The notes beneath the pieces were generated by a model that saw only the letters and a program-made list of their open reading frames with translations, searched no databases and was not told the origin of the DNA. The translations under genes were made by a program, and so were the position numbers. DNA of 64,000 nt. Source: Schmidtea polychroa. Taxonomy: Eukaryota. Positions 16,017 through 52,095 of this stretch are shown here, piece after piece (the first letter of the stretch is position 1; each line of letters begins with the position of its first letter). The stretch spans positions 46,066,001 to 46,130,000 of the forward strand of contig CM097885.1 of NCBI GenBank assembly GCA_044892525.1, read 5' to 3'.

Positions 16017-16017
16017 A

Positions 16018-24324: not shown

Positions 24325-24594
24325 TCAGTCACTGTGTAAATCCTTGAAAATCCCTTCATTCGTACGACTATCTCTGTGAAAATCATTGTCTGCCAGCGAT
24401 TCTTTTAACCATGACCCCTTGTGATCATTTAGTCGCATCTTCAGCGATAGGACCCGTGAAGAAGCCTTCACATTTCGGCCCAATCTAGCTGCGTGATTGA
24501 AATACTCCATGTCCACCGGCTGAGCTCCCGAAGGCACCTCATACCATGACATGGAGTATCTCAACTCCACGTTACTCGTTAAATGAAAATTCAT
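24325..24594 (-). CDS. Small LTR ORF, 89 aa (copy at 50424-50693)
   Basis: A diverged nucleotide homolog exists at ~52096-52245; coding status uncertain. Confidence 0.35.
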   Translation of the reverse strand: MNFHLTSNVELRYSMSWYEVPSGAQPVDMEYFNHAARLGRNVKASSRVLSLKMRLNDHKGSWLKESLADNDFHRDSRTNEGIFKDLHSD

Positions 24595-26335: not shown

Positions 26336-26375
26336 TCATTATGTTTATTTACAATTGGTTTTAATGACCCTTAAT

Positions 26376-30488: not shown

Positions 30489-33400
30489 CTATATACGTGA
30501 GTTTGGAGGGCGCTGAGCGTTCCAGGCCTCCACCCACTGTTCTTGTTTGATATTACTTGGTCGTTTCACTCGATGTTGGAAATTTCTGATTCGAGTCATC
30601 TCTAGTTCTCCGCGATGTCGTTTATCCTTAATTATTTTTATTGTTCCCCCCGTTATGATTAGGAATGCCCCTGTTATTATTATCCCACTGATCCACATCA
30701 TCTGCTTCACGCTTATACTCTCTGGTTTTTCCTGGTTTGTTAATGTTGATATTGCTTCTGTACTTTTCTCGTTCCCTCTTTTGCCGTTTCCTTTCATCCT
30801 TTCCCGTATTCTTGCTATTTCCTCGTTCATACCCTCCTTTGCCATCTTCTGTATTTTTTCCATCTCTTCTTCCGAAACATAGTTGTCCTGAGCTTCCTCA
30901 CCAGTTTTCTTGTGCTTTCCTCCTTCGTTCTTTTCGTCGTGGTTCTTTCTTTTCTTTCCTCTTTTCCCCGGGTATCGTCGGCATTCTCTTTTTGATTCAT
31001 TCCTCCAGATACAAACCGTGTATTCTTTCGGCGGCTGCTGCTGCGTCACATATTGATGGCATCTCTCACCTGGTCCTAATCTTGAAATACAGACTTTGTG
31101 CTCTTTTCTAGGTTGGATCTGCGTTATTACTACTTCACCACCTTTTCCTAGGTGTACCTCTTTTCCTTTGACGTTCGTTATTCTCTTCCCGTCTCGATTT
31201 CGGTATGCTTCTTGTATTCTTACTTCTGTTATTGGTTCTGTGTCCTCATTTATCAGTACTAGTTTCTGATACGCTCTAGACATGCATCTTCCTAGTATGC
31301 ACCTTTCCTTTAAGTCCCATTCTTCCTTTAAATCCCACTGCTGCTCTTGTGCTTGCTTTCTCTTTTCTTGTTTTAGTTCATCCTCTTTGCTATCTTGATT
31401 CTCCGCTTCTTTGGTTTCTTTTATCGTTCTCGTCCCTCCCTGAGCTGTTACTAACTCTATCATGGTAAGCATAATTATCATTAATATCATATTTGTCTCT
31501 ATTTCTTTGTTAGTGAAAGGTAGGCATACCCTCTGTTTTCCATTATTCGATTTTTCCTCCTCTTTGGTCTTGGTTCTCGGGCTGTTTCCCTCTCTTTTCG
31601 TATCCGAATCCTTGTTTTCTGGTTTACCCTCCTCCGGTTCTCTTTTCTCTTTATCCTCCTTGCGGTCTTTTCCGTTATTGTCATCGTGTTTATCTCCCTC
31701 GCTGTCATTTAAAATGTCGTCCTCGACATTTATATCGTTCAATAATCTGCGATATGCTGTTAGCACTCTGTTTCTTGCTAATTTTGCTTCGAATTCAAAC
31801 TCTTTTCTACCCGTTGCAGCATGTCTCTTTCTATTCCATTCTTTAACTAACTCTCTCAATTGCATACGACGATGTTTCCCAATTCGTTGTTGCTCGTTCT
31901 GATTTTGCGTGAATTTTAGGTCTTCTCTATTTAATACTATTAAAATAATTTTAGGCGTCCCCCCCTTAGTTAGGGTATTCTTTACCATCGCATTTTCTCC
32001 GTTTTCGTAGAATTCGTTTACATTTATCGCATATTTATTATTTTGTGGTACTCTCCAGGTTAATAATAATTTCATTGCTTCTAGATTTTTCCGTACCGTA
32101 TTCCATTGAAACTGAGATGTGTTTTTGCACATATTTTCAACTTCTTCTTTTGTCGCATTTTTGCAAATAAATCTGATCATTTCTAAGTTTGGCTGTATGG
32201 TTGCCCAGTCCAAGGTGGAATTTCCTTCATTGGACCTTTCGTCTAGTTTCGATCCTGATTGATGTAGGATGTGGAGTGTTTTTGGGTGTATTTTCGTTAT
32301 AGCTGCATACATCATGGCGGTTTCACCTTGTTCATTTTTCGTGTTGGTTTCCTCGCCCATCTCTCCAAGGATTCTCACGATCGTTATTGCTCTATTTTCT
32401 TTCGCCGCTAGTATTGCTTGTTGTAGGGGTGTTCTGGAATCCTTCGTTACCATCGTAAATGCTCGAGGCAAGAAGGTTTTGATTTTCCCGATATCTAAAT
32501 CCGTGGTTTGATCTCTTGCGTATGTGTGTACGGCTTTTATTATTTTTGACAATATTATTTCGTCTGGCAGCTCTAGCATTTCCTCAAAGAACACTTCTTT
32601 TGCTTTGCGTATTATTGCCTCTTGATCTATACTCATTGATTTGGTTTCGATGACGTTGTTTGTGACCGTTTGGTTCGTTGTTGACTTTGATTCCCTGGAT
32701 TTCTCATACCTTATTTTCGTTTTCTTTCCGTTTGGATTATTGATTCGTTCCTCTGCTGTAAGTATTTGGATAATATCCATGTAATTCTCGCGGATGTTAT
32801 TCATCGTGTCCATCATATATAATACACTTACTGTTTCCCAATATTTATGTCGTACTTGGTTAGTAAATTGGAATAGTGATTTTTCGAATGTGTCGATTCG
32901 CTTTTTTGTTAACTGTTCGTCTTTGTGATTTGTGAATTTTATCCCTCGTTCCAGTAATTGATTCGGGATTTCGAATAAATGATGTCCTTTCATAGCTTCT
33001 CTCATCAGCGTGTTCTCTCCTCTCGTGAACGCTTCGTTTACGTTGATCATATAATCGTTTCGAATTGGATTTCTCCATGTAATTAATATTCCGGTAATTG
33101 TCGTCAGTTTTTCTTTGATCGCTGTTAGCAATCCATCATACATGTTTCCGACTTCCCGATTGTCCTCATATGATAGTAGTTCCATCAATGACGTGAACGC
33201 CTCGGTACTTCTCCCTCTGATAGCATGATGTAGAGCGTTTTTCCGCTCGTGGTCTTGTGTAGTTATTTTCGATCCGGTATCGAGTAATGCGGTTATGATG
33301 TCTTTTGTTTTGCCTCTGTTTGCGGCTATCATTAATGGTGTGTAACCTTGGTTGTTTGTTTGTTCTGTTGATCGCTTGCAGTCGTGAAATGCTTCTATTG

Positions 33401-36400
33401 TTTCTAGTATTTGCTCGTTGTTACCTACTTTCATGAGTTTGTGTAATGGTGTGTCTCCGTAATGATCTGTTATTGTAAATAATATTGGCCATTGGCTTTT
33501 GACTACTCGCAATAATGGGTGTGTCCTTTCTCTATTTGCATAGTTCTCGATCATCGTCAATAATCCTCCTAATATTTCGAAATCTAATCGATCTTTTGCC
33601 CATCCAGGTATTTTAATTTTTACCTCCTTTACAATCTTTTCCGCTTCTGATGGTTGGATACCTAATCGTCCAGTGATCGGTTCTGCGAGTTGCTGCATCA
33701 TGTTCATTCGGTAGGTTTGCGAACGTGTGGTTAATGTACGGCCTTCTGGTTGACTAGTGGCTGTTTTTGGGATTGATTTGCATCGTGCCACGTTTACGTA
33801 TATTGGTCTGGTAAAGGGGTTATTTACCAATTTCACTCTTACATTAGTTTCGCCTACGAATAAGATCTCATATGGTCCTTTTCCGTTGCGTTGTAACTTT
33901 TTTGTGGTTCCTGGAATTAATTCCGGGGTTTCTATCATTACCCAATCACCTGTTTGGAACGTATGTTGCTTCACGTTTTTCTTTCGATCGTGTAAATCTT
34001 TATAACTTTCCTGGTAGAACTTGATATTTAATCCCGCAGTTTCCCAAATTTCTTGCATTCTTTCCTTGAATTTCGTAACATAATCATCGATCTCCATATA
34101 CTGCGATATCGGTGGTTGGTATTCCAGGTCCATTGGCATGTTACATTCTCTTCCGTACATTAATTTGAATGGGCTCATTTTCGTTGATGCGTGAATCGAC
34201 ATTCTGTACGCCATAAGACATAGGTTTATATATTCGTCCCAATCTCGTTGGTGACGGTCAACGTAGTTTGATAACATTTGTATAAGTGTTCCATTAAATC
34301 TTTCCGTCATCCCATTGGTTTGAGGGTGGTATGGAGATGTTCTTAGTTTTGCTATTTTGAAGTAATTTGTTACTTCGCTCATTATCTCACTCATAAAATT
34401 AGTTCCCTGATCGGTTAAGATTTGTTTTGGTGTTCCATATCGGCAACATATCTCTTCTACCAAAATTTTTGCGATTGTTTTAGCTTTTTGGTCTGGCATC
34501 GCGAATGCTTCTGGGAATTTCGTAAGAAAGTCTGTGATCACTAGAATGTAAACGTTTCCTTTATCTGACTCTGGTAGTGGACCAACTACGTCCATGGATA
34601 TCATTGTCATTGGTTCTATTGGTACTGGCATTGGTGTTAAAGGTGCTTTCCATTTCGATCCAGTATTCTTCCTGGTTGCACAAGTTAGACAATTTTTTAC
34701 CCATTCGGTTACATCTTCAGTTAACGTAGGCCAAAAATATTTCTGTTTCATTCTTGCTAACGTCTTTTTCGATGACATATGTCCTCCCAATCTCCCATCG
34801 TGATATTGCGTTAGTAACTCTTTTCGTCGGTTTTCCGGTATACACATTAATCGTTTTTCCCCATCCATTATCAGCAACCAATCTTTCTCTATAATATATC
34901 GGTGTCGGTGTTTATCCATATGTTCTTTTAATTTTTGGTCTTTCGCATATACCTCTGTCTTTCCGGTTTTTACATAATCGATAATTTGTTTTAATTCCGC
35001 GTCCTCTTGTTGGTCCTTTCGTAATTGACAGAAATCCAAATCTTCCGCTACTATTAAGCATATGCGTTGCATTTCTGAATCCACCAAATCTGGGAAAATA
35101 AATCTTGACATACAATCGGCGTTGGCATTTGCTCTTCCCGCTTTGAATTTTATAAATGGGGAGTATTCTTGCAATTGCATGGCCCATCGCATCAGTCTAC
35201 TGGACGCTTCTTTATGTTGCCCTAACCACACTAATGGTTGATGATCCGTGGTTATGCATATCTCATGTCCCCATAGTAAATATCGGAAGTGTTTGATAGC
35301 TTGTATTATAGCCAATGCTTCTCGTTCTGTTACCGAATAGTTCTTTTCGTGCTTTTTGAATGTTCGACTGTAATACCCGATTACTCTCTCTTTTCCCTCA
35401 TCGTCTAATTGTCCCAGAATCGCGCCTGCCGCGTACCCGCTTGCATCCGTTGCCAATAGAAATGGCTTCTTAAAATCTGGGTGTACGAGGATAGGTGCTT
35501 CGATTAGTTTGTCTCTCAGCGTTTCGAACGCCTGTTGTTGTTCTTTTTCCCAAATGAACGAAATATCCTTCTTTACTAATTCCTGGATTGGTTTTGCAAT
35601 TCCTGCATAATTTTTGATAAATTTGCGATAGTATCCGCATAATCCTAGAAATTCCTGAACTTGGGTGACAGTTTTCGGTGCTGGACATGTTTTTATTTTC
35701 TCAATGTTTCTTGGATCTGGCTCCTTTCCTTTAGCTGACACTATGTGTCCTAAAAACGTGACTTTTTCCTTTGCCCAATCGCATTTTGATGGTTTGAGTT
35801 TGAGTTTCCACTGTCTTAATCTAATAAATACGTTTCGGATATCTTCCAGATGTTGTTCAAATGTCGCTGAATAGATTAGTAAATCATCAATATATACCAT
35901 ACATTGTTTGATTCCATGGGTGACAAAGTTCATACACCGTTGAAATGATGCTGGTGCGTTGGTCAGTCCAAATGGCATTTTCCTGAATTGATATAGATCT
36001 CGTCCCAACGTGAAAGCTGTTTTCTCTTTGTCCTCATCTTTGACTTTAATCTGCCAGTATCCACTTTTTAGATCTAAAGAAGTAAAATATGCTGCCCCTT
36101 GCAACATCAATAACATCTCATTGATGTCCGGCAATGGGTAGGTATCTCTCTTGGTCACTGCGTTTAACTTCCGATAATCGATACAGAATCGTTGGGTGCC
36201 ATCTTTCTTTTTCACCATGACCACTGGGAATTGCCAGGGTGAGCAACTTGGTTCGATTACTTTTGCGTCTAGCATCTTTTGTACTTCTGTTTCGGCTATT
36301 TCTTTCTGCATTTCTGCTAGCTTGTATGGTCTCAATGCAATTGGGGTTTCGTCTATGAGTGGTATTGCATGTAAGGTAACATCACATGTACCCAAGTCTA

Positions 36401-39400
36401 AATCTGAGATGGCGAATATATCTTTATATTCTACCAACAATCGGTGCAATTTTTTCTTTTCGTCATTCGTCAACAACATACTATCTATTGTCCATAATTC
36501 ATCATCTTTGATCATCTCGTTGGTCACTTTCGGTAATTCTATGTCCATCATTGGGGTCAATCTTCCCAATTTTTCGTTCTCATAAATGATTTTGTCTTCC
36601 TCTTCGAAATTCGTGATGTTGAGCGGTATCACTCCTTCTTGGTTTATTGTGATTATTTCTCTTGCGAGTGGTAATTCTCGTCGCTTTTCAAATGACTTGC
36701 TTGGTTCAAAGATAACTTCTCCTTCCATACCCGTATCCACTTTTATCTGACAAATCATCTGTGATTTTGCTGGTACTATTATTTTTTCTGGACATCTGAT
36801 GACTGCATTCATTTTGCATATTCTACCGGTTTTGTCTTTTAAACACATGGTTGTTAAGTCAATTACGACTTCTTTTAACAATTCTGGCATCAAATCCGTT
36901 CCGATTATGCATGGTACGCTAAGTTTTGGTATTACTGCCAAATACGTTTCAATTTCGTTGTCCTGGTATCTCAATGTAGTCCACCATCTTCCGACCACGT
37001 CCACTGTTTCTTTACTACATGCTATGATGTGAATTGTTGTTGATTCGATATCCTTCCAGTGTTTACTGGGGATTTGATTAATCGCTATCGCTGATACATT
37101 AGCTCCGGTGTCTATCATAGCATTGGTTTCTTTACCATTGATTTGAATCATAACTGTTACTGCTGGACCTCCAGGTAAACTCATCGCTGCTATTGTTCTT
37201 ACGTCATCTGCTTGATCTACACTTTTGGTACGTCGTGTTGGCATATAATGCATACCGGGTTGACTCGGTAATTGCGGATACATATTTTGTGTCATGGTCA
37301 AAGCTGTTTGTGGTCCCACGATATCCGGTGGTATATAGCTTCCATTGGCGATCCAGGTGTTTGTCTTTTCCTTTTCCCAATATGGTGCCGTTTCCATTGG
37401 TTTTTCGTTTGGGTTTCTGTTTGGATAAAGACATTTATCGTTCCCGTTATCATCGTCGTCACTATCGCTGTTAGATGATTGGCTTCTAAATCGGTCCAAG
37501 AATTTTGGCTTATTCTTTTTCAATTGTCGTCTTGTTGCTTCATCGTACATTACTTTCCGGAATCGTCTGCCTACTTCTTCGTCGGTTCCTTTAATCTTTG
37601 TTAATATTTTTATCAATCGCTTTATCCGATGAATGTCTTTTGAGTGGCCATGTAATACCATGGTCTTAGCTAAAAATGGTAAGAAGCCTACTATCATTTT
37701 CCAATTAACTTTCTTTTCCCGCTTGTATATATCGAAACAAGCTAACATTTGTGTTAGTATTACTCTGACTATCTGAATTATGAGTATGATCCCTAATATC
37801 CCGGCCATCATTTGTCCAAAAACTAAGAATCTTCCCCACATTGCTTTCATCATGTTTGACGTAGCTTGTTGAAAATGGTCTGGCGATAATAGCAGCTCGT
37901 AATTCGGGCCTGATTGATAATTTGTGCCCCCAGTTATTGTAACCATATTAGACAAAATGGATTCTCGTCTGGCTGGGAAGAGTACGTTAAGTCGTGCTGT
38001 TTCTAGATCTTCTGGGGAATACATACCACCGTTTGACACGTCTATAGGTTTGAAATCCAGCTCTGTGGCGAGTTCTATTAATCCAAATTTCTTGGGCTCC
38101 TCGGATATGGTTTTTCCCGGTAACATCATCCATTTCCCATCGGGCCTTTCATATAAAGGTCCGTATGCATTAGAACAGTTAAAGAGATTTGGGTAGAAAC
38201 CCACTGGATTCATAATTCTAGTGACTGGTTGGACGAATCGATTTTGTCCTTTATAACGGATTTCTAATTCATTTGCACATCTCTTTTCGGGTAGTATGGA
38301 TTTTTCTGGCATTCGTGCATACGTCTTGGTACACTGGTATGTGTACATCACTTCTCCTACCATTCTACCAAAGTGTCCATCTGGTAATGGGAGGGATGGC
38401 ATCGTGTTATCTGGGTGCGTTATCGCAATAGCTAGCTTTGTTTTCAATATTTCTTTATTCAATGAACAATCGTTTTGTATCAGATCGTAATATACTTTTT
38501 GCAAGGTCGTTTGTCCACGATGAAATAGAAAATCCATTTTATTATTTGCATATAAGTATAGTTTTACGTCCTCCGTTGCTATCTTTCCCACTGCTCTATC
38601 GATTATTTGTCTCGACATATAGATACCTGCGTAATTGGTTTTATATACTATACTGTCACATTTGGTGGTTTCTTTCTCTTTGATAAACCTCATACCTAGA
38701 TCTGGATCGTCTGTGATTAATGCTGTTGGTGTCTTCTGCGTTGAAAGTCTCTTTTCTCTGGGAGATGGTGGCATTGGTTTTCCATTTCGCATCCTCACTC
38801 TGTCGTTTCCATCCTCGTCGTTCTCGTTCTCATATATTTCTCCTTTTACTTCATTGAACAAAGCACTTTTTAACAGTTGGAGTCGGCATTTTTGGGTATT
38901 AGCTTCATAGATTATAGTTGATACTCCTGTCCTGCATACGTTTTCTGTAGCTTTACACGTTGGGTTGGTCTTCATTTGGTAATTATTTGCGTCAAATTGC
39001 GCTTCGTATTCTTTTAATTCGACCGTGTAAGACTCGATCACTACAACTCCCGATATTACCTCGCCTCGGATCGTATACGTACCTCCGTTACATGACCCAT
39101 CTGATGATTTTACTTTTCCGGATACGTAAACACTTTCGGTTTTAATCATTCCAGTTTGTCCGTGAATTGTCACTCCGTTATGCATTTTTAGCGCTCCGGT
39201 TCTAAATAGCTCTTTACAATCCTCTCGTTGTATTGATACGATTTCTTTATCCAGACCGGGTAGTATAAGAGTCGAATACGAATATTGTCCACAGTAATAT
39301 GCGAGTACCTTTTTTGATACTACGCATTCCCTTGCTTGCGTTCTGATGAAATCTGATTCTTGATATACATGGTAAGTAACTTTTGTTCTTACGATGTCCA

Positions 39401-41345
39401 ATTTGTTGGGTGAGGCTTGTCTGCATTCTTCTATGTCTCTCAATGAGTATTTATCTCTCATTATCATATTATCACAATCGTAGATGGTGAAACCTGTTGC
39501 TCCACTTGTGCACAACATCCATATCATCATAGTCATCATTAACGAATTTATTGATGCTTTTCTGCTTGCGGGATCTTTCATCGGTAGTTCCCATTCTAGT
39601 TCATTTAACAGTTTTTTCAATCTAACTTGCATCGACCTTTCTTGCTCATTTTTCCGTGGCGCTTGTATTAGTCTTTTCCATCCTCCTGCACGAATAATAT
39701 GTGGTTCAATAGTATTCTCTATGATTGAAACGGTCATTTCCACATGATTTGCAAACTGTTTATTTGGTATTTTCCTCGCAGCTAGTCCCATCAAATTATA
39801 CATCAAATAAGTGATTACCACTAGATGATGCTCGTCATCATTTGCATTTGTCGTGAGCTGCTCAATCACTCTCTTTGTTTCGTCCCAATCCGTTTTGGTG
39901 GTTTTCGTTTTCTCTTTGATTAACTTTGGGATTATCCCCGAAATGGTGCGCCATAATTGTCTAGCTTCCGTACTGGCTACTTTCCGTTGCCACAAACGTC
40001 TAAGTTGTGGGTTTGTTATTATTAACATATCTTTTAACAATTCTCGTATCCATTTTTCTCCTCTTTCGATCGTTGGTTGGGCTTCCTTTAGATCCCATAC
40101 TATTTTATCCAATTTTTCTAATCGAAATTGCCCTTGTTCTTGCTTTAATTGTTCTTTGGTTTTGAACTCAGACTTTTCTCCTTGTTTCTTGGGTCTTCCT
40201 TTTGCCCGTTTTTCCATCATCGTTCCTGCTTCTCTGGTATTTTCGTAATTCGGATTTCTTTCGTTATCCGTTCTGGGTAATGAGCTATCGTTATTTCTTA
40301 GCCACTCATTCCATTCGTCTATTATTTTGTCGGTTTGACTTTCTGGTGTTACTTTCGTTGGTTCTCTTTGCTTCTGGAATTGTTCATCCGTTTCGGTTTC
40401 CGTAGTATTGTCGATGATTTCTTTGATGTTCAGTTTCGTTGGTTGTTGATAACTCGTTGATGGCTGGTTATTAGTCCACATTTCGGCTCCTGTCGGCCAT
40501 CTCACTAATAGCGGTGATCTTTCTCCTGGTTCATCGTCACTATCTTCCAGGATTATCTCTTCAACTTCTTCAGTTTCATTAGATTTACTTGGTGCTTTGT
40601 TCGGACTTGGAGTACTCAAACTGCCTTTTGTTGGTTTAATAATTTTACTTTTCCTTTTTAACGGTTTTCCCAACGTTTCTGCCATTGTTAATACATTTGT
40701 CTCTTCCAATCTCATGGGGGTTATCCCGACGTCTGCATTATCGTCTAGTGATTTTCCGAACAGTTGCAGATGGAATGGAGTTTCATATGCTAATTTCTTT
40801 TTTAATTCTCTAATTTTTGTTGTTGGATGCACCTCTAGTTCCTCGATGCTCTTGTCCGGATACTTGATTCGGATGTGATACCTCTCCTGGGTGTCTTGTG
40901 CCCATTCCTGATTTCTCCATTTTCGAATAATTTGTTCTAGCTGTTCTGGATACCATTCATTATATTGCCGGTATTCCTCTATTGCCTTTGCCATTCCTCT
41001 CAGATTGTGGATGTCCTCTGATGTCTTTAAGATGATGTTAGCCAACGCTACTACTTGGCGTCTTTGATTTTTCGCTCCCATTGCTAAGATATCGCCTAAT
41101 TGTTTATATCTTTCTTTCTCTTCTCGTTCTCTTGCTTCCGTCGCTTCCTCGCCGTCCATATCAGCATATTCACGTTCCTTTTTCCTCATTGCATGAATAT
41201 GTCTCGCTTCATTTTCGCTTTCTGATGTGACATCCGTCTCGCCTTCGTCATCTGATGTCTGTTCCCTTGCTTCCTCTTCATATTTTGGAGGTTCCTCTTC
41301 TTCTTCCTCCGATTCACTTTCTGTCTCACCAATGTCTGTTTCCAC
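30489..41345 (-). CDS. pol: 3618-aa polyprotein: UBL - Bcl-2-like - envelope glycoprotein - PR - RT - RNase H - IN - ankyrin repeats - C-terminal membrane protein
   Basis: PR IDTGANVS (~37110); RT YIDD (~35890); RH LATDASG (~35450); IN HDGRLGGH...CLTC, DVVGP, TDQG, NGMTERFN, GPY; ankyrin GDTPLH, GYTPLM, GETAMM. The annotated start is a GTG 7 codons after the gag UGA, in the same frame. Confidence 0.95.
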   Translation of the reverse strand: METDIGETESESEEEEEEPPKYEEEAREQTSDDEGETDVTSESENEARHIHAMRKKEREYADMDGEEATEAREREEKERYKQLGDILAMGAKNQRRQVVALANIILKTSEDIHNLRGMAKAIEEYRQYNEWYPEQLEQIIRKWRNQEWAQDTQERYHIRIKYPDKSIEELEVHPTTKIRELKKKLAYETPFHLQLFGKSLDDNADVGITPMRLEETNVLTMAETLGKPLKRKSKIIKPTKGSLSTPSPNKAPSKSNETEEVEEIILEDSDDEPGERSPLLVRWPTGAEMWTNNQPSTSYQQPTKLNIKEIIDNTTETETDEQFQKQREPTKVTPESQTDKIIDEWNEWLRNNDSSLPRTDNERNPNYENTREAGTMMEKRAKGRPKKQGEKSEFKTKEQLKQEQGQFRLEKLDKIVWDLKEAQPTIERGEKWIRELLKDMLIITNPQLRRLWQRKVASTEARQLWRTISGIIPKLIKEKTKTTKTDWDETKRVIEQLTTNANDDEHHLVVITYLMYNLMGLAARKIPNKQFANHVEMTVSIIENTIEPHIIRAGGWKRLIQAPRKNEQERSMQVRLKKLLNELEWELPMKDPASRKASINSLMMTMMIWMLCTSGATGFTIYDCDNMIMRDKYSLRDIEECRQASPNKLDIVRTKVTYHVYQESDFIRTQARECVVSKKVLAYYCGQYSYSTLILPGLDKEIVSIQREDCKELFRTGALKMHNGVTIHGQTGMIKTESVYVSGKVKSSDGSCNGGTYTIRGEVISGVVVIESYTVELKEYEAQFDANNYQMKTNPTCKATENVCRTGVSTIIYEANTQKCRLQLLKSALFNEVKGEIYENENDEDGNDRVRMRNGKPMPPSPREKRLSTQKTPTALITDDPDLGMRFIKEKETTKCDSIVYKTNYAGIYMSRQIIDRAVGKIATEDVKLYLYANNKMDFLFHRGQTTLQKVYYDLIQNDCSLNKEILKTKLAIAITHPDNTMPSLPLPDGHFGRMVGEVMYTYQCTKTYARMPEKSILPEKRCANELEIRYKGQNRFVQPVTRIMNPVGFYPNLFNCSNAYGPLYERPDGKWMMLPGKTISEEPKKFGLIELATELDFKPIDVSNGGMYSPEDLETARLNVLFPARRESILSNMVTITGGTNYQSGPNYELLLSPDHFQQATSNMMKAMWGRFLVFGQMMAGILGIILIIQIVRVILTQMLACFDIYKREKKVNWKMIVGFLPFLAKTMVLHGHSKDIHRIKRLIKILTKIKGTDEEVGRRFRKVMYDEATRRQLKKNKPKFLDRFRSQSSNSDSDDDDNGNDKCLYPNRNPNEKPMETAPYWEKEKTNTWIANGSYIPPDIVGPQTALTMTQNMYPQLPSQPGMHYMPTRRTKSVDQADDVRTIAAMSLPGGPAVTVMIQINGKETNAMIDTGANVSAIAINQIPSKHWKDIESTTIHIIACSKETVDVVGRWWTTLRYQDNEIETYLAVIPKLSVPCIIGTDLMPELLKEVVIDLTTMCLKDKTGRICKMNAVIRCPEKIIVPAKSQMICQIKVDTGMEGEVIFEPSKSFEKRRELPLAREIITINQEGVIPLNITNFEEEDKIIYENEKLGRLTPMMDIELPKVTNEMIKDDELWTIDSMLLTNDEKKKLHRLLVEYKDIFAISDLDLGTCDVTLHAIPLIDETPIALRPYKLAEMQKEIAETEVQKMLDAKVIEPSCSPWQFPVVMVKKKDGTQRFCIDYRKLNAVTKRDTYPLPDINEMLLMLQGAAYFTSLDLKSGYWQIKVKDEDKEKTAFTLGRDLYQFRKMPFGLTNAPASFQRCMNFVTHGIKQCMVYIDDLLIYSATFEQHLEDIRNVFIRLRQWKLKLKPSKCDWAKEKVTFLGHIVSAKGKEPDPRNIEKIKTCPAPKTVTQVQEFLGLCGYYRKFIKNYAGIAKPIQELVKKDISFIWEKEQQQAFETLRDKLIEAPILVHPDFKKPFLLATDASGYAAGAILGQLDDEGKERVIGYYSRTFKKHEKNYSVTEREALAIIQAIKHFRYLLWGHEICITTDHQPLVWLGQHKEASSRLMRWAMQLQEYSPFIKFKAGRANANADCMSRFIFPDLVDSEMQRICLIVAEDLDFCQLRKDQQEDAELKQIIDYVKTGKTEVYAKDQKLKEHMDKHRHRYIIEKDWLLIMDGEKRLMCIPENRRKELLTQYHDGRLGGHMSSKKTLARMKQKYFWPTLTEDVTEWVKNCLTCATRKNTGSKWKAPLTPMPVPIEPMTMISMDVVGPLPESDKGNVYILVITDFLTKFPEAFAMPDQKAKTIAKILVEEICCRYGTPKQILTDQGTNFMSEIMSEVTNYFKIAKLRTSPYHPQTNGMTERFNGTLIQMLSNYVDRHQRDWDEYINLCLMAYRMSIHASTKMSPFKLMYGRECNMPMDLEYQPPISQYMEIDDYVTKFKERMQEIWETAGLNIKFYQESYKDLHDRKKNVKQHTFQTGDWVMIETPELIPGTTKKLQRNGKGPYEILFVGETNVRVKLVNNPFTRPIYVNVARCKSIPKTATSQPEGRTLTTRSQTYRMNMMQQLAEPITGRLGIQPSEAEKIVKEVKIKIPGWAKDRLDFEILGGLLTMIENYANRERTHPLLRVVKSQWPILFTITDHYGDTPLHKLMKVGNNEQILETIEAFHDCKRSTEQTNNQGYTPLMIAANRGKTKDIITALLDTGSKITTQDHERKNALHHAIRGRSTEAFTSLMELLSYEDNREVGNMYDGLLTAIKEKLTTITGILITWRNPIRNDYMINVNEAFTRGENTLMREAMKGHHLFEIPNQLLERGIKFTNHKDEQLTKKRIDTFEKSLFQFTNQVRHKYWETVSVLYMMDTMNNIRENYMDIIQILTAEERINNPNGKKTKIRYEKSRESKSTTNQTVTNNVIETKSMSIDQEAIIRKAKEVFFEEMLELPDEIILSKIIKAVHTYARDQTTDLDIGKIKTFLPRAFTMVTKDSRTPLQQAILAAKENRAITIVRILGEMGEETNTKNEQGETAMMYAAITKIHPKTLHILHQSGSKLDERSNEGNSTLDWATIQPNLEMIRFICKNATKEEVENMCKNTSQFQWNTVRKNLEAMKLLLTWRVPQNNKYAINVNEFYENGENAMVKNTLTKGGTPKIILIVLNREDLKFTQNQNEQQRIGKHRRMQLRELVKEWNRKRHAATGRKEFEFEAKLARNRVLTAYRRLLNDINVEDDILNDSEGDKHDDNNGKDRKEDKEKREPEEGKPENKDSDTKREGNSPRTKTKEEEKSNNGKQRVCLPFTNKEIETNMILMIIMLTMIELVTAQGGTRTIKETKEAENQDSKEDELKQEKRKQAQEQQWDLKEEWDLKERCILGRCMSRAYQKLVLINEDTEPITEVRIQEAYRNRDGKRITNVKGKEVHLGKGGEVVITQIQPRKEHKVCISRLGPGERCHQYVTQQQPPKEYTVCIWRNESKRECRRYPGKRGKKRKNHDEKNEGGKHKKTGEEAQDNYVSEEEMEKIQKMAKEGMNEEIARIRERMKGNGKRGNEKSTEAISTLTNQEKPESISVKQMMWISGIIITGAFLIITGGTIKIIKDKRHRGELEMTRIRNFQHRVKRPSNIKQEQWVEAWNAQRPPNSRI

Positions 41346-41366: not shown

Positions 41367-44342
41367 TCATTCCTTACTTTCTGCATTCCACACTCTTTCC
41401 CATGGGGTTCGTCTGCAAGATCTGGTATTTAATTTCGTGATTTTTCCTTGTAGCTCTTTTTCTTTTAACCATTGTTGGTGGATTTCAATTATTTCTGTAG
41501 ATTTTCGATATAACGTTTTCATCCGGTCTCGTATTTCTTTTTGATATGTTACATCTCTTGTTCGGAATTCATCCATTGGTACTATCCTGATTATCTGATG
41601 ATTGTCCCACATACCCATTTCGCTTAACGAGGTGTCGTCCTCCGCTCGTAATATTATCTTATCGTACATCATGACTACATCATCCACCATACCATCACTA
41701 CTTTCGCTACGTACCTTTTCCGTTATCTCTTGGTTTATTTTTGATACCAAGTCATCCACTGTACTCTGATTGCTCATTTTTATTCGTCGTTTTTCTTCGT
41801 TCGGTAACCATATGGTTATTTCCAACCTCTGTGGCTGGGTTTCTTTTAACCTTCCATATTTGTGGATCAAATTTATGGTTCTCCAATCACTCATTCGGAG
41901 CATTTCTGTATCTCGCAACCGGCTCATTAGTTCGTACATGACTGGGGCTCGTCTGGTGATGAGTAAATCCCAGTTGTCTTCTACTTGTTCTTGAATTTGT
42001 TTGATCAGCTTATCCAGGTTTCGTCTCAGAGTACATTGTTTTATTTGTTCTAATTTCAATTTGATATTAAAATCATATTCTGCCTTGGCATCTTTAGCCC
42101 AATCGTAAAGGTTGGCTGGTTGTTTTTCTTTATGCAACTTCAGTATTTGCGTTTCTCCTGGCCATATTAGTGCATCTACTAAGTGCATATCTGGTTTGAT
42201 CTGTTCTCCTTGGTATTGATACAGATATTCTTTCTTTCTCGAACTTCCCAAATGTTCTCGTATCCAATCGAAAAGTTCGTCGGTGACTGTATTTTTTATC
42301 CACATTCTTTCAAGTCCTCTACTCGTTCCAATTTTTATTACATACCGCGTGGTATCGGCCTGCTTCATTTTTTCCATATAATTTTTTATAATTGATTTTT
42401 CCTCGTTTGGTATTAAATCTTTCTCGTTTCTTTCCAATTTCATCACTTTTTGCACGAATCGCCTGAATGGTATTACGTCAATGAACTCTTGGTTCCTCAC
42501 TACTACTGGGAGTATTTCGGCTACCTGTTTTATCGCTTCCTCCCTTGCTTTTCTCAACTTTATTTCGATATCTTCGTCTTCACTTTCACTGGTTATCTCG
42601 TTTCCGCTTTCTTCCTCTTTGATTTCCCCTTTTGGAGGTTCGCTTATTTCATTCGGCTGTAGTATTTCTCCACCCAAACTACTTACATAATCTTCTTCTT
42701 CGTCTGACGATGCTACATCTTTTGTCCTTTTCATCATATTGATTTGCAAGTTTCTCATCCTTGGTACTTTCTTTAGTTTCTTTCTTTCGAATATTGTTGT
42801 TTCTTCTGGTTCTGATTCTTGTAGCATTTGGTGGTTTAGTTGACTGGTTTGTTCCTTGCTCTTGTTATTTTCATCTTCTGTCTCGGTTTTCGCTTTATTA
42901 TGTTCTTTTTCGATTTTATCCTTTATCTTTTTCCAGAATATTTTCTGAGTTCTCTGGTTTCCTTTTAAAATCGTGGTTGAATTCTCTGTTTTCATTTCCG
43001 TTGTTATTTCTTTTACCTTTTCTGGTTCAGTCATGGGTACTACCCTTGGGCTTTTCCCGTAATTGTAGCAATACTGGCTCTTCATGTCTTTTACTAACCT
43101 CATCATATTTATTCGCAATGGTTGTTCTTGTCGTTGTTGGTTGCGTTCTTGTTTTATCCTCTCTTCCTCGGCCTGTAGCCTTTGCCATTCTTGTACATGT
43201 TGATGCACTTCATAATTGTTGAGATTTTCGGTACTCCTCATCATACGTATATTCTGGGTTTGTTGTGGTGCTGATTCTTGTCTTGGTCTCATCATTTGTT
43301 GCATCATCTGTTTCATCTGCGAAATTTCCTGCATAACGTTCATTTGTTTTCCTTCGTTAGGGTTACTTTGTCGTTGCGGATTCGCTATATAATTATTATT
43401 TCGCTGTGGTGGTCGTTGTTGTTGGCCCCTTTCTCGGCAATCTCTGGAGATGTGACCTGGCTGACCACAGTTAAAACAGCCTCGCAATTGGCATACATTT
43501 TCGGTATGTCCACGCCGTCCGCAACGATTACAATTTGAATTTCTATAACAATCTCTGTCCCAGTGTCCTGGTTTACCGCATGTTCGGCACTGCTTGTTAT
43601 CGTTCATATTTCGCCGATTATTGAAATTGTTCTCATTATTCGGGTTGTTACGATTACCATTATTCCCGTTTGATCGTCCTTGTGGTGGTTTGAAAATTTG
43701 GTGCGCTCCTGGTATAAATTGATTCATTTTCGGTTCTTGATTGTTGTTATCTCCGTTATCCGCTTTCGCTATTGCTGTCGCTATCCTTCCCTCCTCTTGC
43801 ATAATATTCATTTGAGCTGGAAGGTGGAGCTCGCATCTTGTAGCCCAATCTATGGCTTCCTCTAATGTTTTGCACATTTGACAACCTACTGAGGCTCTTA
43901 CTTCTTCTCGGCGTAATCCCTCTATGAAATAACCGATCAGATTTTCTTCGGGTAATTTTCCATTCATTGCTTTCTTTGCTAATCTCCGCAATTCACTGGC
44001 ATATAATGTTATCGATTCGTTTGCTCTTTGTTTCCTATTTGCTAGTTCGCCCAACGCCTGGTTGATTGGCTTACTGGCTCCGAAGGTTTTCTTCAGGAAT
44101 GTTTTAATATCTTCCCACTTTTCTAATTTCGTGTCTCTCTCTTTAGCTTCTAAATATACCTCTAATGCACTATCGCACAAAAACAACGGCATCCTTTTAC
44201 TAATTGCTTCGGGTGTCCATCCACACACAGTGATATAAACTTCAAAATTAGTTATGAACGTTGCTAGCTTGTTTGCATTTCCGTTGAACGGTTCTCCTCT
44301 GAACTTCTCTTTATACTCGTCGGTTTTTACGACATTCGTCAT
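41367..44342 (-). CDS. gag: Gag (capsid-like region plus three CCHC knuckles) with a ~600-aa C-terminal extension
   Basis: FNGNANKLATFITNFE...; CRTCGKPGHWDRDC, CNRCGRRGHTENVC, CFNCGQPGHISRDC. Confidence 0.92.
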   Translation of the reverse strand: MTNVVKTDEYKEKFRGEPFNGNANKLATFITNFEVYITVCGWTPEAISKRMPLFLCDSALEVYLEAKERDTKLEKWEDIKTFLKKTFGASKPINQALGELANRKQRANESITLYASELRRLAKKAMNGKLPEENLIGYFIEGLRREEVRASVGCQMCKTLEEAIDWATRCELHLPAQMNIMQEEGRIATAIAKADNGDNNNQEPKMNQFIPGAHQIFKPPQGRSNGNNGNRNNPNNENNFNNRRNMNDNKQCRTCGKPGHWDRDCYRNSNCNRCGRRGHTENVCQLRGCFNCGQPGHISRDCRERGQQQRPPQRNNNYIANPQRQSNPNEGKQMNVMQEISQMKQMMQQMMRPRQESAPQQTQNIRMMRSTENLNNYEVHQHVQEWQRLQAEEERIKQERNQQRQEQPLRINMMRLVKDMKSQYCYNYGKSPRVVPMTEPEKVKEITTEMKTENSTTILKGNQRTQKIFWKKIKDKIEKEHNKAKTETEDENNKSKEQTSQLNHQMLQESEPEETTIFERKKLKKVPRMRNLQINMMKRTKDVASSDEEEDYVSSLGGEILQPNEISEPPKGEIKEEESGNEITSESEDEDIEIKLRKAREEAIKQVAEILPVVVRNQEFIDVIPFRRFVQKVMKLERNEKDLIPNEEKSIIKNYMEKMKQADTTRYVIKIGTSRGLERMWIKNTVTDELFDWIREHLGSSRKKEYLYQYQGEQIKPDMHLVDALIWPGETQILKLHKEKQPANLYDWAKDAKAEYDFNIKLKLEQIKQCTLRRNLDKLIKQIQEQVEDNWDLLITRRAPVMYELMSRLRDTEMLRMSDWRTINLIHKYGRLKETQPQRLEITIWLPNEEKRRIKMSNQSTVDDLVSKINQEITEKVRSESSDGMVDDVVMMYDKIILRAEDDTSLSEMGMWDNHQIIRIVPMDEFRTRDVTYQKEIRDRMKTLYRKSTEIIEIHQQWLKEKELQGKITKLNTRSCRRTPWERVWNAESKE

Positions 44343-46853: not shown

Positions 46854-47339
46854 TCATTCGCCATAATAGACCATATGGGTCTCTTTTATTTCATATTTGC
46901 ACATCGTGCATCTTTTTAGGTCTTTTACACACTCTTCACAGTGACTGAGGTGTCCACACGGTAAGAATAATACGCGAATAGGACGGAGTTTGCAGGCTAT
47001 ACAAGTTCGTAATTGGTTAACTTTTTCCTGTATTTTTTGTTCGATTGCATCTGGTATTGTATTTAGTGAGTCTTTTAGACGCTGATAATCTAGATTTAAT
47101 GTTGGGTGGTTCAATCTCTCTTGATACCACTGATATACGGTTTCGGGGTTTATTTTTCCATCTGGGCGACTTAGGCCTGTGGCTAATATCATATGATTAG
47201 GTACGACTGGTGTTTGTCCGATTGCTTGTAGTAATATCGCGTTGATTTTTTCTCTTTTATGCGTCAGTGTTGTTAGGGAGTCGTTTTCTATATCGATAAA
47301 CTTGAGCAGTTGTTGCATTTGGTTCGCGAATTCTGTCAT
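46854..47339 (-). CDS. C-terminal RING protein of the IAP/MDM2-like type (161 aa)
   Basis: CIACKLRPIRVLFLPCGHLSHCEECVKDLKRCTMCKYEIKETHMVY at the extreme C-terminus. No BIR domain seen. Confidence 0.85.
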   Translation of the reverse strand: MTEFANQMQQLLKFIDIENDSLTTLTHKREKINAILLQAIGQTPVVPNHMILATGLSRPDGKINPETVYQWYQERLNHPTLNLDYQRLKDSLNTIPDAIEQKIQEKVNQLRTCIACKLRPIRVLFLPCGHLSHCEECVKDLKRCTMCKYEIKETHMVYYGE

Positions 47340-47658: not shown

Positions 47659-47676
47659 ATCCCGGCTGAGCCCCCA
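47659..47676 (-). promoter_or_regulatory. Primer-binding site, tRNA-Pro type
   Basis: Minus strand reads TGGGGGCTCAGCCGGGAT, 16/18 to the MLV tRNA-Pro PBS TGGGGGCTCGTCCGGGAT; 7 nt from the LTR end. Confidence 0.85.
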
Positions 47677-48217
47677 AAAATCATGTTGGGGTTACACCTC
47701 GGCTGACCACTCTACCATGTTGACGGGTCTAAGGGTTGATTGTCCATCTCGAATAAAAGGTGCCACCGATTTGTCAACCTGGAGTGAAACCCCACATAAC
47801 TTTCTTCCAACATAGTGCCCGTGAATCACTTCACGTTGGTACTGCACTATGCAGGCGAGACGCCAGCAAGCAGGTGAGCTTCTGCCTTAAAACTACTCCT
47901 TGCTGAGGCCTCGACTTCCCATTCACGACTGCCGATAGAAGGGCTTACGTCCATTTCCTTACACAACCGCTTATCGGGATTCGCTGAATGCAAATTGGGA
48001 ATTTCTCACTAGATCTTGCGGGTTCTCTACTCGACCCACTTAATTAAAGTCTAATTATTCATGAACGAAGACGTGTAAGACAACAAGATTTATTAATTTC
48101 AATGTTATGACACAAGGATTCAGCTGTACCCTTTACTAACGTTTGTCGAAAGAAGAGAAAACATCATAATCAACATAGATCGGATCCTTGTTCCTCATCC
48201 TGACCGCCACTGGGATT

Positions 48218-49006
48218 TTATTGTTTCTCCCATTCAGTGTCGGCGAATAATTCGTCGAGGTTAAAAAACTCGGAAGCGTTCTCTTCCCACATTACGCCAG
48301 CGGCTGATATGATTCGTGCCGAGGGTCCCGTTGTTAGGTCGATGGACACGTGAGAGTTGCCACCGCTGGTTGAATCCTCTATGGATGGGATGTTTGGCTT
48401 TGTAGTGGCGCGCTCGCGCTGTCTCTTCTTGCGCTCTGCACGAGAGAGTTGTTTGCGCTTGGGTTTGCTTGAAGAGGCCACTTGCAGAAGGGTGACTGAT
48501 ACGGATGGACTAGCAGTGGGGGGCTTACTGGTACCCGTGATGACAACATCTGGTCGCTTGGGGGACAATTCGGTTTCGACGCAGTCTCGGCACGGTCTCT
48601 TGAACGGTGGAGTTGGATTCGAGGAAAGGTTGTGATGAGGCGGAAAGATGTCATCGGCCTCTCGGATGGGAATCTGCACGATTTTTCGGGTTGTAGCCGC
48701 CTGCACGTAAACCTTATGCAGTGCCTCGGATTGTTCTCTGATTAGACTTCTTTGGGCACGGCTCTCAGATATTAGCGCGTCCCGGCAATGCTCGCTACGA
48801 TCGAGCTTCTTTTGGATCTCTTTCATCCGAGCGGGACTAAACCATGTCCCTTCCAGCTCGTCTATCTTCCTCTTGTAACGTCCAATCTGAGTTTGTAGGT
48901 CCTTTATCACCGTATTTTTATCCGCGCACGAGAAGCACGGCCGTAATGCTGATTTAGTGGTTGGTAGCATGCTTGCTATAAATAATACTAATGAAATGGA
49001 GAACAT
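48218..49006 (-). CDS. LTR-encoded 262-aa protein (5' LTR copy)
   Basis: Identical to 22119-22907 except one C/R change. Confidence 0.65.
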   Translation of the reverse strand: MFSISLVLFIASMLPTTKSALRPCFSCADKNTVIKDLQTQIGRYKRKIDELEGTWFSPARMKEIQKKLDRSEHCRDALISESRAQRSLIREQSEALHKVYVQAATTRKIVQIPIREADDIFPPHHNLSSNPTPPFKRPCRDCVETELSPKRPDVVITGTSKPPTASPSVSVTLLQVASSSKPKRKQLSRAERKKRQRERATTKPNIPSIEDSTSGGNSHVSIDLTTGPSARIISAAGVMWEENASEFFNLDELFADTEWEKQ

Positions 49007-51169
49007 ACGATTTTAGAATAAATTAGATACGACCCGCGTCCATTCGTGGATACTTGACCGTCGAAAAGAAGGAAAACTTATTCTACAATCCGGTTTTACT
49101 ACGGATCTTAGTTGTTAAAACAGTTTATTTAACCAAATGCCATCGGTTTGACGCATGTTATTAACTTTGACTATCTATTGATCTAACTGTATGCATGAGG
49201 GACGTAATAATTGATAGGGTGTAAATATAATATTGGTGAAACAATATAATAATGCTTTAGTAGAGGGACATTATAGTATGCGACCAAACCTTGCTATATG
49301 TTATCTATTTTAATTTATTAAAAACAAATTACTATCGCTCTCAACATATTTTTGATTCGAAATTGGTTATTGGAAGTGCACTTTTAATTCGGTAGTGAAT
49401 GTGATTATCCATGTTGTCTACCATCGGTCTGAAAATATGTGATGAGTTTACATCAGCCATTACTTTAACACCCTCATGGAAAATCCCATCGGTCATAACA
49501 TATCCAAATTTACGGATACTGCTGTCGACTGGTTGATTACATTATCGACCTATTGTGAATGGCACGTGTCGCGACTATCATGTATGCTAGTCTGATATTC
49601 TGTGCTCTCACCACATGGATTCGTGTATGGCTACTATCTTATCTCACTCACTTGGTGTATGCCATTTTCACGGTGATTTCATCGATCCTGCTGTCATATG
49701 ATTTTTTCTACACAGTGATTTATTTGAATTATGATTTACGCTACAGTCAGTTCTCATCGCGGAATTTTGCCCTTATCAACTTGTGTGAATGATCACCATC
49801 GTTTGGAAATTTATTGGATCTTTTCAGTGATCGTCGAGGGAATAATTCTACCAAATACTGAAGCTTATTACTACTCTCGTCATTCTACTCGGATTTTCCT
49901 ATTCAGATGTAATGCCGTCTCAATGAAACCTGCCCTTAGCCATTCGAAATTTTCTCTCAGGTTAAATAATTTGGATATATACAGTGATGCCCTGGCTCTT
50001 ATTGTAGAAATAAATGTTATTAATTAAATTTGATGATATTTTACCTGTTTATAATTTTTGAAATAACTAAGTCTATAAAAACTTTCTGATTATAATATTA
50101 GAGAGGTTTTCGTAGAATCTCGCATTTTTCAGTTTCGAGTTAGTTAAAGTTTTTAGGATACTTTCGTAACCTGACATACAATCTGGACAGGCTAGATGAC
50201 ATTGGGTCTATGATAACGGAATTTCATACGAAATTAGTTCTACTGAGTCCGGCAAATAGACGTTGTCGCAATTAACTTGATGAAACCATGTTTCCAGATG
50301 AAGCGTACTATGAGATGTCGTTATTTTTGACGAAGTTCACTAAATCGTTGTCTGGATCTCATTTTTCAATAGGGGTAAGATTTACGAAAACGACTTGACG
50401 AAAGAAAAAGGAATGCGACGCCCTCAGTCACTGTGTAAATCCTTGAAAATCCCTTCATTCGTACGACTATCTCTGTGAAAATCATTGTCTGCCAGCGATT
50501 CTTTTAACCATGACCCCTTGTGATCATTTAGTCGCATCTTCAGCGATAGGACCCGTGAAGAAGCCTTCACATTTCGGCCCAATCTAGCTGCGTGATTGAA
50601 ATACTCCATGTCCACCGGCTGAGCTCCCGAAGGCACCTCATACCATGACATGGAGTATCTCAACTCCACGTTACTCGTTAAATGAAAATTCATAAAATCT
50701 TTAATTCAAATAAAATACGGACATCTGGATAAAAATATTTTATTAATTCTGAAATACTTAAATAATACAAATTACATCAATACGTTAAAGTTATTAAAAT
50801 GAAGAATCAAATGAAGAGAGTTAACCAAAATGTTTAATCGTTAATATTTACCATTACTATTAGCTTTACAAATACTTAAATAAATCTATAAACAAATGAA
50901 ATACCCCTTACTATTGTTTAGGCTGAGTCAAAATTCAATATTGTTCGTTCCAAATAGTTTGAATGGTGGTCCGTTGGATGTCGATTATTGTGACGAATGG
51001 TATTTCGGTCTCTGAACTGGTTTTGAATAGTTGTGGAGTTTTCTGAATGACGGTTGCTTGGCTAGTAGTGTCGATCCTATGAAATGCTCGGGGTTAACAG
51101 TAACAGTAAACATTTTTCTTACCTATGAAATGCTCGGGGTTAACAGTAAATTTAATGTTTTTGGTAGTT

Positions 51170-51204
51170 GTATATATATCAAATTCTTATTTGTGCGGAC
51201 CAAT
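51170..51204 (-). promoter_or_regulatory. Candidate LTR promoter: CCAAT box and TATA-like box (copy at 25071-25105)
   Basis: GACCAATCAG (NF-Y-like) followed on the minus strand by ATATATATAC, downstream of an A-rich U3. Confidence 0.5.
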
Positions 51205-52095
51205 CAGAGTTGAGTACCGCTTATTTCTATTAATTTAATATAATTTTCTTGTTTTTAGGTTGTTTTTTCCTTATTTTCTTTATTTTTAATATGTTTTTCT
51301 ATTTATTTCCTTAATTTCCTTATTATTTCTTGAATTCCTCTTTATTTATTTGTCAACTTGTTCTATTTTAATCTTTTCTTAATTTTATTTTTTGTTTTAA
51401 TTCTTATGTCTTACTTATTATTTTCCTTATATCTTATTCTATTTTATTTCTGATTTTATTTATTTTATTATTATTTTTCTTAATGTTCTACTTCCCTACT
51501 TTCCTATTTTTCAACGATTAAATTTTCGACTCAGCCCAACACTTATTAAATTTAAAGAACAAAAGTGTTTAAATTAATAAAAATTAATATAACTCAAATT
51601 ATTTAAATTATAAAATTTATAAAATTAAAATTAATAAAAAATTAAATAATTAATTAATTAAATTAATGAAATTAAAAATAAATAAATAATTGCACACACT
51701 CATGCATGTATACAAAATTAATTCAAAATTTCTCGCACTCTAATTGGATAGAGTGGCAGAGAATGAATGAATGCGCATTCAAAATCAGTATAAATACTGA
51801 TTACAAATTCATTTGAAGAGCTAGTTTTCCAACACCACAACTGGTCATTTCGGATAGTGTAACCATTACATTGATGGTAAACACTTGCTCTCAGTTTTTC
51901 TCGATTTTATGCCATCGTGGATTGGGTTGGGTAATTTTAATTTTTTTTATATGAAATTTTTGTGTAATGTTTTAAGCTAAATAAATTTTATATTCAATTT
52001 AGTTCAATTGTTTAATTGTTTAATTTTCATTTAATTTTTAAGTTTTGGATAATAATTTTTATTGGGTTCAATTGTTATGCTTATTGATTATGAAC

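Follow-up and report, generated by a model that had tools for sequence, protein, structure and literature searches.

A gene under purifying selection inside the long terminal repeat of a planarian Burro-type element, with a duplicated exon that may restore its intron

Can a long terminal repeat (LTR) be a gene in its own right and, if so, what would its protein do for the element that carries it? The question is raised by 64,000 nucleotides of Schmidtea polychroa (GenBank assembly GCA_044892525.1, contig CM097885.1, positions 46,066,001 to 46,130,000; "the window" is this whole stretch), which hold a Burro-type giant gypsy element on the minus strand (21585–51541, 29,957 bp). The element ends in two LTRs of 3,858 bp, both TG..CA, with one mismatch between them; a 4-bp target duplication flanks it, and the unoccupied site is present in locus L061. 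The 5′ LTR (47684..51541, minus strand), followed by a primer-binding site and internal open reading frames (ORFs), contains an ORF of which a second copy lies in the 3′ LTR (21585..25442, minus strand; Met13 to stop, 22871–22119). A sequence-only reading had proposed that the LTR is a self-contained gene and that its protein is a transactivator. The first proposal is well supported by the genomic comparisons described here; the second is plausible, and a post-transcriptional role fits at least equally well.

A search of the same genome with the LTR ORF scored 146 matches among 6,996 candidates, at 86–100% identity, mostly paired and about 26 kb apart. Counted from Met13, the frame runs for at least 249 codons in all 50 loci fetched, these being the best-scoring copies, so that decay is under-sampled. 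Pairwise dN/dS is 0.07–0.17 in 11 of 11 pairs (dS up to 0.96; Fisher p at most 0.0012), and variants at codon positions one, two and three number 62, 47 and 183: the copies are under purifying selection, where decay would have spoken against a gene. The protein itself is shorter than the 262 aa first proposed. The full open frame (49006–48218, minus strand) includes 12 upstream codons that are present only in LTR type A (31 of the 50 loci); types B and C carry unrelated sequence in their place, often with an in-frame TAG. Homology among the three types breaks off roughly 1 kb from the LTR start and is regained only at Met13, which argues that the first 12 codons are non-coding; a start at Met1 is ruled out by the type B and C sequences, and the coding region is the 250 codons from Met13 (48218..48970, minus strand), as delimited by conservation and dN/dS. 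Target duplications together with the 250-aa ORF were found in seven of eight solo LTR candidates, the conservation that the sequence-only reading had asked about. Homologues occur in two further families: in F2, a protein of 253 aa (42% identity over 181 aa, E 9e-37; 150 scored of 6,883 candidates), and in F3, a shorter one (E 3.4e-6 with the core profile) in both LTRs of 30-kb elements. Between LTR types, synonymous divergence changes stepwise along the ORF (L049:1219-1965, L031-L050), which shows recombination within the gene without loss of the frame. Tandem arrays with three evenly spaced copies of the ORF also occur (C4:12789991-12813056, 11.1 kb; C2:177680073-177733279, 26.2 kb).

The signals that would be needed for expression are conserved as well; all splice, start and end positions given here are placed by conservation. 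The CCAAT- and TATA-like boxes noticed earlier near one LTR end, a reverse CCAAT box (ATTGG, 51200..51204, minus strand) and a TATA box (51171..51178, minus strand) about 30 nt ahead of a repeated unit, are kept in 20 of 20 divergent A, B and C LTRs. ATTGG was found in 14 of 21 F2 loci, and the spacing from TATA to donor is 53–55 nt in 14 of 14 F2 promoters (F2 counts leave out, of the 21 loci, 7 without a matched promoter, 1 without a matched ORF and 10 without a matched hairpin). The acceptor suspected just before Met13 holds up: its AG ends at 48976, 5 nt ahead of the codon. The adjoining stretch (50538–48971) is unalignable between LTR types, and types A, B and C each have their own pyrimidine tract and AG 5–9 nt ahead of the ATG; in F2, AG directly precedes the ATG in 19 of 20 ORFs. 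For the downstream AATAAA the earlier claim stands in part. The hexamer occurs 16 times in the window LTR and its mere presence is commonplace, but it stands at a conserved place (+876 relative to the ATG in 19 of the 20 divergent A, B and C copies, +861 in the remaining one), which marks 48089..48094 (minus strand) as the putative poly(A) signal of the gene. A hexamer variant lies 120–150 nt past the stop in 8 of 8 F2 LTRs examined. Because of the selection, the conserved positions of promoter, donor, acceptor and poly(A) signal, and the intact solo LTRs, a self-contained gene is the well-supported reading; on sequence evidence the ORF is a genuine gene.

How this gene is arranged relative to the start of transcription is suggested by a duplication near the promoter. 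A 25-nt unit (51123..51147, minus strand) is, from spacing and junction variants, the candidate non-coding exon 1. It is followed by a 46-nt GT..AG mini-intron (51077..51122, minus strand) whose last 25 nt (51101–51077) repeat exon 1, and the same donor would also open a long intron of 2,147 nt (48976..51122, minus strand) reaching to the acceptor ahead of Met13. The design (a 25-nt unit that closes with AG and is followed by GTAAG and, 21–25 nt on, by the unit again) is common to A/B, C and F2, the unit sequences of which differ; the second copy follows the first at 46–50 nt. Among 65 A/B copies (a count that leaves out three type C loci), 57 have both units and eight have a single unit, a clean loss of the mini-intron. 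The two units change together: in F2 they differ within an LTR at 0.07 of 22 nt, against 5.1 between LTRs (14 LTRs, nine distinct units), and private variants of A/B units occur in both units in three of three cases. The 12 nt ahead of unit 1 are identical in 63 of the 65 A/B copies; the junction ahead of unit 2 takes 16 forms in 57 copies, 11 with G and eight with C, and in F2 the base ahead of unit 2 is G in 9 of 14 LTRs, at a position where T or C precedes unit 1. Slippage in a T run alone is an unlikely source of this variation, since G or C occurs in 19 of the 57 junctions. In 14 of 14 elements picked for rare variants, the two LTRs have their junction variant in common, which indicates that the variation arises before integration. 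A 31-nt segment right after the repeat, ending in AG, is missing from 38 of the 65 copies, an exact loss that fits an alternative splice.

Such signatures resemble what strand transfer could leave. Reverse transcriptases can add extra terminal bases, and non-templated and cap-opposite additions can occur at the first strand transfer. For fission-yeast elements, recombination near the U3–R junction at minus-strand transfer has been described (10.1101/2022.12.06.519325), and a statement on Tf1 bears on terminal additions at strand transfer (PMC3185545). In the model we favour, the packaged RNA would have the mini-intron removed at its 5′ end, and the minus-strand copy of that end, often with an extra terminal base, would anneal at the 3′ end either to unit 2, putting the intron back, or to unit 1, losing it. 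A spliced 5′-end copy landing on repeat 2 would thus give a new LTR that regains its mini-intron. A start at unit 2, or packaging of unspliced RNA, would not homogenise the units, which favours unit 1 as exon 1, with a start site at its first base or up to 3 nt earlier. The putative U3 would then be A-rich and about 394 nt long (51148..51541, minus strand), as drawn from the identity between types A and B (95–100% within it, 58–78% past the repeat) and from the F2 homology blocks, which stop at the end of repeat 2; a break between types at that point fits restoration. We consider it probable that the mini-intron is restored during reverse transcription, and highly probable that the gene's splices and RNA ends lie where they are placed here. 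Because the strand-transfer signatures put the start 2.2 kb ahead of the ATG, the gene would lie downstream of the start site, in R/U5. The bypass of the 5′ LTR poly(A) site that the sequence-only reading called for follows if genomic RNA starts at the LTR promoter, as the junction evidence supports. A search for genomic copies without the long intron, with a gapped two-motif pattern, gave no matches, an uninformative result that is expected if the mRNA lacks the primer site.

It could be supposed instead that the gene sits in a long U3 with an internal promoter, as MMTV sag does, and that genomic RNA starts after the AATAAA; no bypass would be needed, and the duplication would be incidental. 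Strong-stop DNA would then be of normal size (about 0.4 kb rather than 3.5 kb), and MMTV and foamy viruses do use internal promoters (PMC9143442). Such a late start leaves the co-evolving repeats, the hypervariable junction and the sharp homology break at repeat 2 unexplained, and no conserved CCAAT-plus-TATA pair was seen by eye late in the LTR; we regard it as very improbable. The late LTR does contain a block common by eye to F2, F3 and family S (47870..47960, minus strand), with a donor-like GTAAG at 47948.

With the start at unit 1, one promoter near the LTR start would give rise to two RNAs. By default, the 25-nt exon 1 would be joined to the acceptor lying 2.1 kb further on, and the transcript would end at the LTR's own poly(A) signal, yielding an mRNA for a 250-aa nuclear protein from any LTR, solo LTRs included. 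Along the alternative, genomic route, the donor would be joined to the near acceptor 46–50 nt away, so that the sole donor is lost, the long intron and a hairpin within it are kept, and the RNA reads through to the internal genes; its 3′ end must reach unit 2 with the intron retained. The hard problem for the element would be the choice, from a single promoter, between a spliced, early-terminated RNA and an intron-keeping, read-through RNA.

The hairpin offers a possible handle on that choice. Within the long intron, a two-hairpin RNA element is conserved (50541..50670, minus strand), as judged by folding z-score and covariation: a block of 130 nt, 88–98% conserved among A, B and C inside an otherwise unalignable intron, folds with z = −5.96, the lowest of the LTR windows scanned, and none of 200 shuffles was equally stable. 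Its mid-stem exists in three compensated sequence versions and the tip loop is kept (23 distinct copies from A, B, C and family S). Rfam gave no match at E 1, and a pre-miRNA is ruled out, since the loops are retained and the mid-stem is the variable part. At comparable LTR positions F2 and F3 have hairpins of a different kind. Between the F2 element and that of the window, gag, env and integrase (IN) are 92%, 89% and 96% identical, while the LTR protein is at 37% and the hairpin is unrelated; hairpin type thus tracks the LTR protein and not Gag. Since the protein tracks LTR type and not the internal genes, the LTR or the host is the likely place of its target. In three F2 loci (L138, L167, L168) the internal region is near-identical to that of the window element, with a RING ORF at only 41%: the LTR and leader behave as an exchangeable module.

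A target in the host is the premise of a further possibility, in which the protein would counter, for example, PIWI or chromatin silencing or nuclear surveillance, and the hairpin would be an unrelated packaging or dimerisation signal. Fast divergence of the protein (37% against 89–96%) suits an arms race, Burro elements are rich in captured ubiquitin and apoptosis regulators (PMC6431247; RING, TRAF and ankyrin here), BURRO1 is a target of SMEDWI-2 (PMC8532177), and family S keeps the hairpin without the gene. We nevertheless hold a host-directed role to be unlikely: no host-like domain emerged from the Atlas, Pfam or Foldseek comparisons, and near-identical Gags accompanied by unrelated hairpins are awkward for a packaging signal.

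The protein is predicted to dimerise as a coiled coil and to carry, further on, a basic helix and then an acidic tail. The CxxC, coiled coil, basic run and acidic tail listed by the sequence-only reading are all present in the window protein, which has a CxxC at residues 12–15, helices at 13–39 and 46–99, a disordered middle, a basic helix at 177–189 and an acidic-hydrophobic tail; a second CxxC is not retained in F2, and the coiled coil with the basic run is the part retained in all three families. A model from a 24-sequence alignment (mean pLDDT 61) gives the first two helices with confidence, then the helix at 177–189, with the rest disordered, about 130 low-confidence residues ending in the acidic tail. 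In a model of two copies of residues 8–118, the chains form a parallel coiled coil whose interface includes the CxxC cysteines (score 0.57 against 0.01 for the best control; runs sharing 97% or more of their contacts, with a pLDDT of 73 or higher). In calibration with microbial proteins, 21 of 30 solved one-chain pairs reached the mark, as did 0 of 23 single chains; for eukaryotes the counts were 17 of 29 and 0 of 30. Of those lacking an older solved relative, however, only one of seven reached it. The basic stretch (11 of 22 residues K or R) is indistinguishable from a nuclear localisation signal (NLS). In 13 of 13 proteins the last 30 residues have a net charge of −2 to −8 and three to seven W, F, Y or L, and 11 of the 13 carry a hydrophobic-D-E-hydrophobic-hydrophobic motif in the tail; the acidic tail persists through types A, B and C and in F2, and is absent from F3.

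Similarity searches place the protein in no known class. A single-protein homologue search returned none of 463 candidates; when 1.84 billion representatives were searched with a profile, 11 hits reached E 0.001 or better, all of them core pieces and nearly all within what look like chimeric eukaryotic gene models, and a second search added three. These database homologues (P0001-P0013, P0015, P0016) are core pieces (GTW..P, ESR.QR) fused to unrelated eukaryotic host genes, probably in gene models that run into solo LTRs, and several end in a PVDIDE-like motif common with F2. Several distant homologues have an arginine run of the NRRRRERRR type resembling Rev, and one of the 24 alignment members weakly matched Pfam REV (E 0.0013). 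For the window protein Pfam gave only GPS2_interact (E 0.03, below the cut-off), the PDB sequences found matched host domains joined to the database homologues and none the shared core, none of the 500 Foldseek matches listed from PDB and viral sets reached E 0.001, and the best Atlas match was weak (0.84, recognition 1502). Pfam, sequence, profile and fold searches alike gave no match to a known transactivator or DNA-binding family or fold.

It is possible, though we would stop short of calling it probable, that the protein serves as an early-to-late switch comparable to Rev, Rex or CERV, binding the intronic hairpin so that intron-keeping read-through RNA accumulates or leaves the nucleus. 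A basic dimeric protein from spliced RNA, combined with a hairpin found only in unspliced RNA, follows the logic of Rev and Rex (PMC9143442), for which CERV provides a precedent in a gypsy element (PMC10309623); this reading draws further on the hairpin type that tracks the LTR protein, the arginine run and REV match, and the retained coiled coil and basic run. Several observations weigh against it. The window protein itself has no Pfam REV hit; leucine-rich export motifs, by commonly known motif classes, are not above the shuffle background in any of the 13 proteins and are not common to A and F2; the F2 basic run could equally be read as a bipartite NLS or as an RNA-binding helix; the acidic tail kept in A, B, C and F2 favours transcriptional activation; and the co-variation of hairpin and protein may be linkage alone, both being on one LTR. 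Family S has the A-type two-hairpin RNA (window 52099–52240, plus strand) in a 1.55-kb LTR without such an ORF, and F3 carries the gene with no visible exon duplication, so that neither feature is universal; and the scheme gives no account of how the 3′ copy of the mini-intron would escape splicing or of the point at which genomic RNA would end. Built on the selection, conserved signals, repeat co-evolution and hairpin covariation observed here, the explanation as a whole (two RNAs, a restored intron and a Rev- or CERV-like switch) is the best we can offer and remains tentative.

The transactivator first proposed would use the same gene structure: the dimer would sit at U3 or on nascent RNA and its acidic tail would recruit coactivators, making it an activator like Tas, Tax or Tat with a positive feedback that solo LTRs can feed. 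The tail with its aromatic and leucine residues, the predicted dimer and the divergence of the protein with LTR type are as such an activator would have them; a neighbouring ORF in the F3 LTR has a GRPRK run, an AT-hook-like motif; and Tas activates both foamy virus promoters (PMC12789967). Set against these are the failure to match any DNA-binding family or fold, the tail-less F3 homologue, a hairpin whose distance from the start (about 480 nt) is greater than a TAR-like site allows, and the consideration that, with one promoter, activation alone leaves the choice of splice and poly(A) site undecided. The protein is not a bZIP, given a domain order in which the basic run lies about 80 aa past the coiled coil. 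We judge an activator doubtful and place the Rev-like switch slightly ahead of it; the two are compatible. The F3 LTR in question (L160:1810-6132) is 4.3 kb long and has a 121-aa ORF ending in the AT-hook-like motif, then the LTR protein homologue, for which a start codon or upstream exon was not found in this locus, and a hairpin at 2773–2845.

Known systems share parts of this arrangement. The ORFs of MMTV sag and HIV nef likewise lie in or run into an LTR; they are in U3, upstream of the start site, and their products are membrane-associated. The analogy drawn earlier with nef, sag and tas fails on this point of position, those genes being in or before U3, whereas the LTR gene would be downstream of the start and its protein looks nuclear. 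Foamy viruses have in common with it a cap-near LTR donor upstream of the poly(A) signal and an acidic-tailed nuclear accessory protein (PMC12789967, PMC3694450), and there the cap-near donor can control use of the LTR poly(A) site (PMC3694450); Tas differs in its internal promoter in env and in binding DNA, and the available parts of these two accounts describe no intron-restoring duplicated exon (PMC12789967, PMC3694450). HIV Rev with its RRE, HTLV Rex and MMTV Rem (PMC9143442) have in common a small protein from spliced RNA, a basic helix, oligomerisation and a structure in unspliced RNA. Unlike these, the LTR protein has no detected export signal, its homology is limited to the weak REV hit of one relative, and gene and RNA element are both within the LTR. 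CERV of the Caenorhabditis elegans element Cer1 is likewise a nuclear regulator from a spliced gypsy mRNA, with a helical zipper, an NLS, cysteines and a predicted multimer (PMC10309623); compared by description, it differs in having 517 aa, five exons, an internal location, a G-protein-like domain and ring multimers, and export has been demonstrated for CERV (PMC10309623) and is proposed for the LTR protein.

Burro/GYPSM1 elements are giant gypsy-like elements of planarians (Jurka 2007; Grohme et al. 2018; summarised in PMC6431247). They resemble the present element in their size of about 30 kb, an env-like fusion protein between gag and pol, MATH/TRAF, ankyrin and RING domains and tandem repeats in the leader; the available part of the summary says nothing of a gene within the LTR, of LTR splicing or of a duplicated exon (PMC6431247). 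In open-access literature listings there was no description of the LTR gene or of an intron-restoring exon duplication, and the primary Burro descriptions may draw the LTR ORF. What appears new in a known element is a variant of accessory-gene regulation with an unusual intron-restoring design. Retroelements normally lose an intron when they package a spliced genome, and the repeat pattern points to a way round this that can be read from genomic copies; if so, reverse transcription of a spliced genome would rebuild the intron in every cycle and the donor would stay heritable. A regulator gene wholly downstream of the start inside an LTR would make solo LTRs protein-coding and trans-acting, perhaps autonomous switch genes across the host genome. 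That the LTR is such a cassette, with promoter, a donor with two acceptors, RNA element and protein, a self-restoring intron and solo LTRs that switch in trans, is a conjecture we hold with considerable doubt. For work on planarian transposons, RNA mapped to LTRs may be mRNA of the LTR gene and not genomic RNA.

The rest of the element matches the Burro/GYPSM1 group, to which it would belong by its gypsy-order pol (PR-RT-RH-IN: protease, reverse transcriptase, RNase H, IN), its length of about 30 kb, its long LTRs and its MATH/TRAF, ankyrin and RING cargo. A primer-binding site 7 nt past the LTR (47660..47676, minus strand), with an equal flank after other 5′ LTRs, presumably matches tRNA-Pro. 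It is followed on the minus strand by a RING-finger ORF with an acceptor directly ahead of its ATG (46854..47339; PF13920, E 3.4e-11) and, by Pfam, gag with Retrotrans_gag and CCHC knuckles (41367..44342), a polyprotein of fusion glycoprotein, PR, RT, RNase H, IN and ankyrin (30489..41189), and a TRAF-like ORF with RING and MATH (28495..29883). The fusion glycoprotein (PF24664, E 1.8e-70) lies ahead of PR, in frame between gag and pol, and the open frame of the polyprotein is 3,625 aa here against 4,732 aa in many other copies. Of the BIR, BCL2-like and dUTPase-like domains also characteristic of Burro elements, Pfam at E 0.05 reported none in the window ORFs. Strong acceptors lie at 47345, just ahead of the RING ATG, and at 44600, before gag; additional mRNAs may therefore be spliced to them, either from exon 1 or from the donor-like site at 47948. 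About 9–10 repeats of 74 nt form an array in the leader (45565–46353), between the RING ORF and gag. Past the TRAF-like ORF (25667–28356) are three more ORFs (369, 250 and 222 aa), coiled-coil-rich and with no Pfam family above the cut-off, and ahead of the 3′ LTR (25443–25470) there is no clear polypurine tract, the flank being identical in other copies.

The element sits inside the 1.55-kb LTR of family S (window 21023–21361 and 51542–52402; L061:700-2257), which has its own ATTGG and TATA and no ORF, and is ruled out as a second gene-bearing LTR. A family S-type LTR precedes broken gag-like and env-like frames in L065; in L057-L060 one lies within a duplicated block of 29 kb that also holds a 1,019-nt tandem array and Polinton-like ORFs. 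Elsewhere in the window, proteasome-subunit and ubiquitin fragments are fused to BEL/Pao-like and gypsy-like pieces, partly duplicated (11645–13102 and 15476–16027), and a segmental duplicate of a fragmented host-like gene region flanks the nested elements (578–4764 and 54910–64000).

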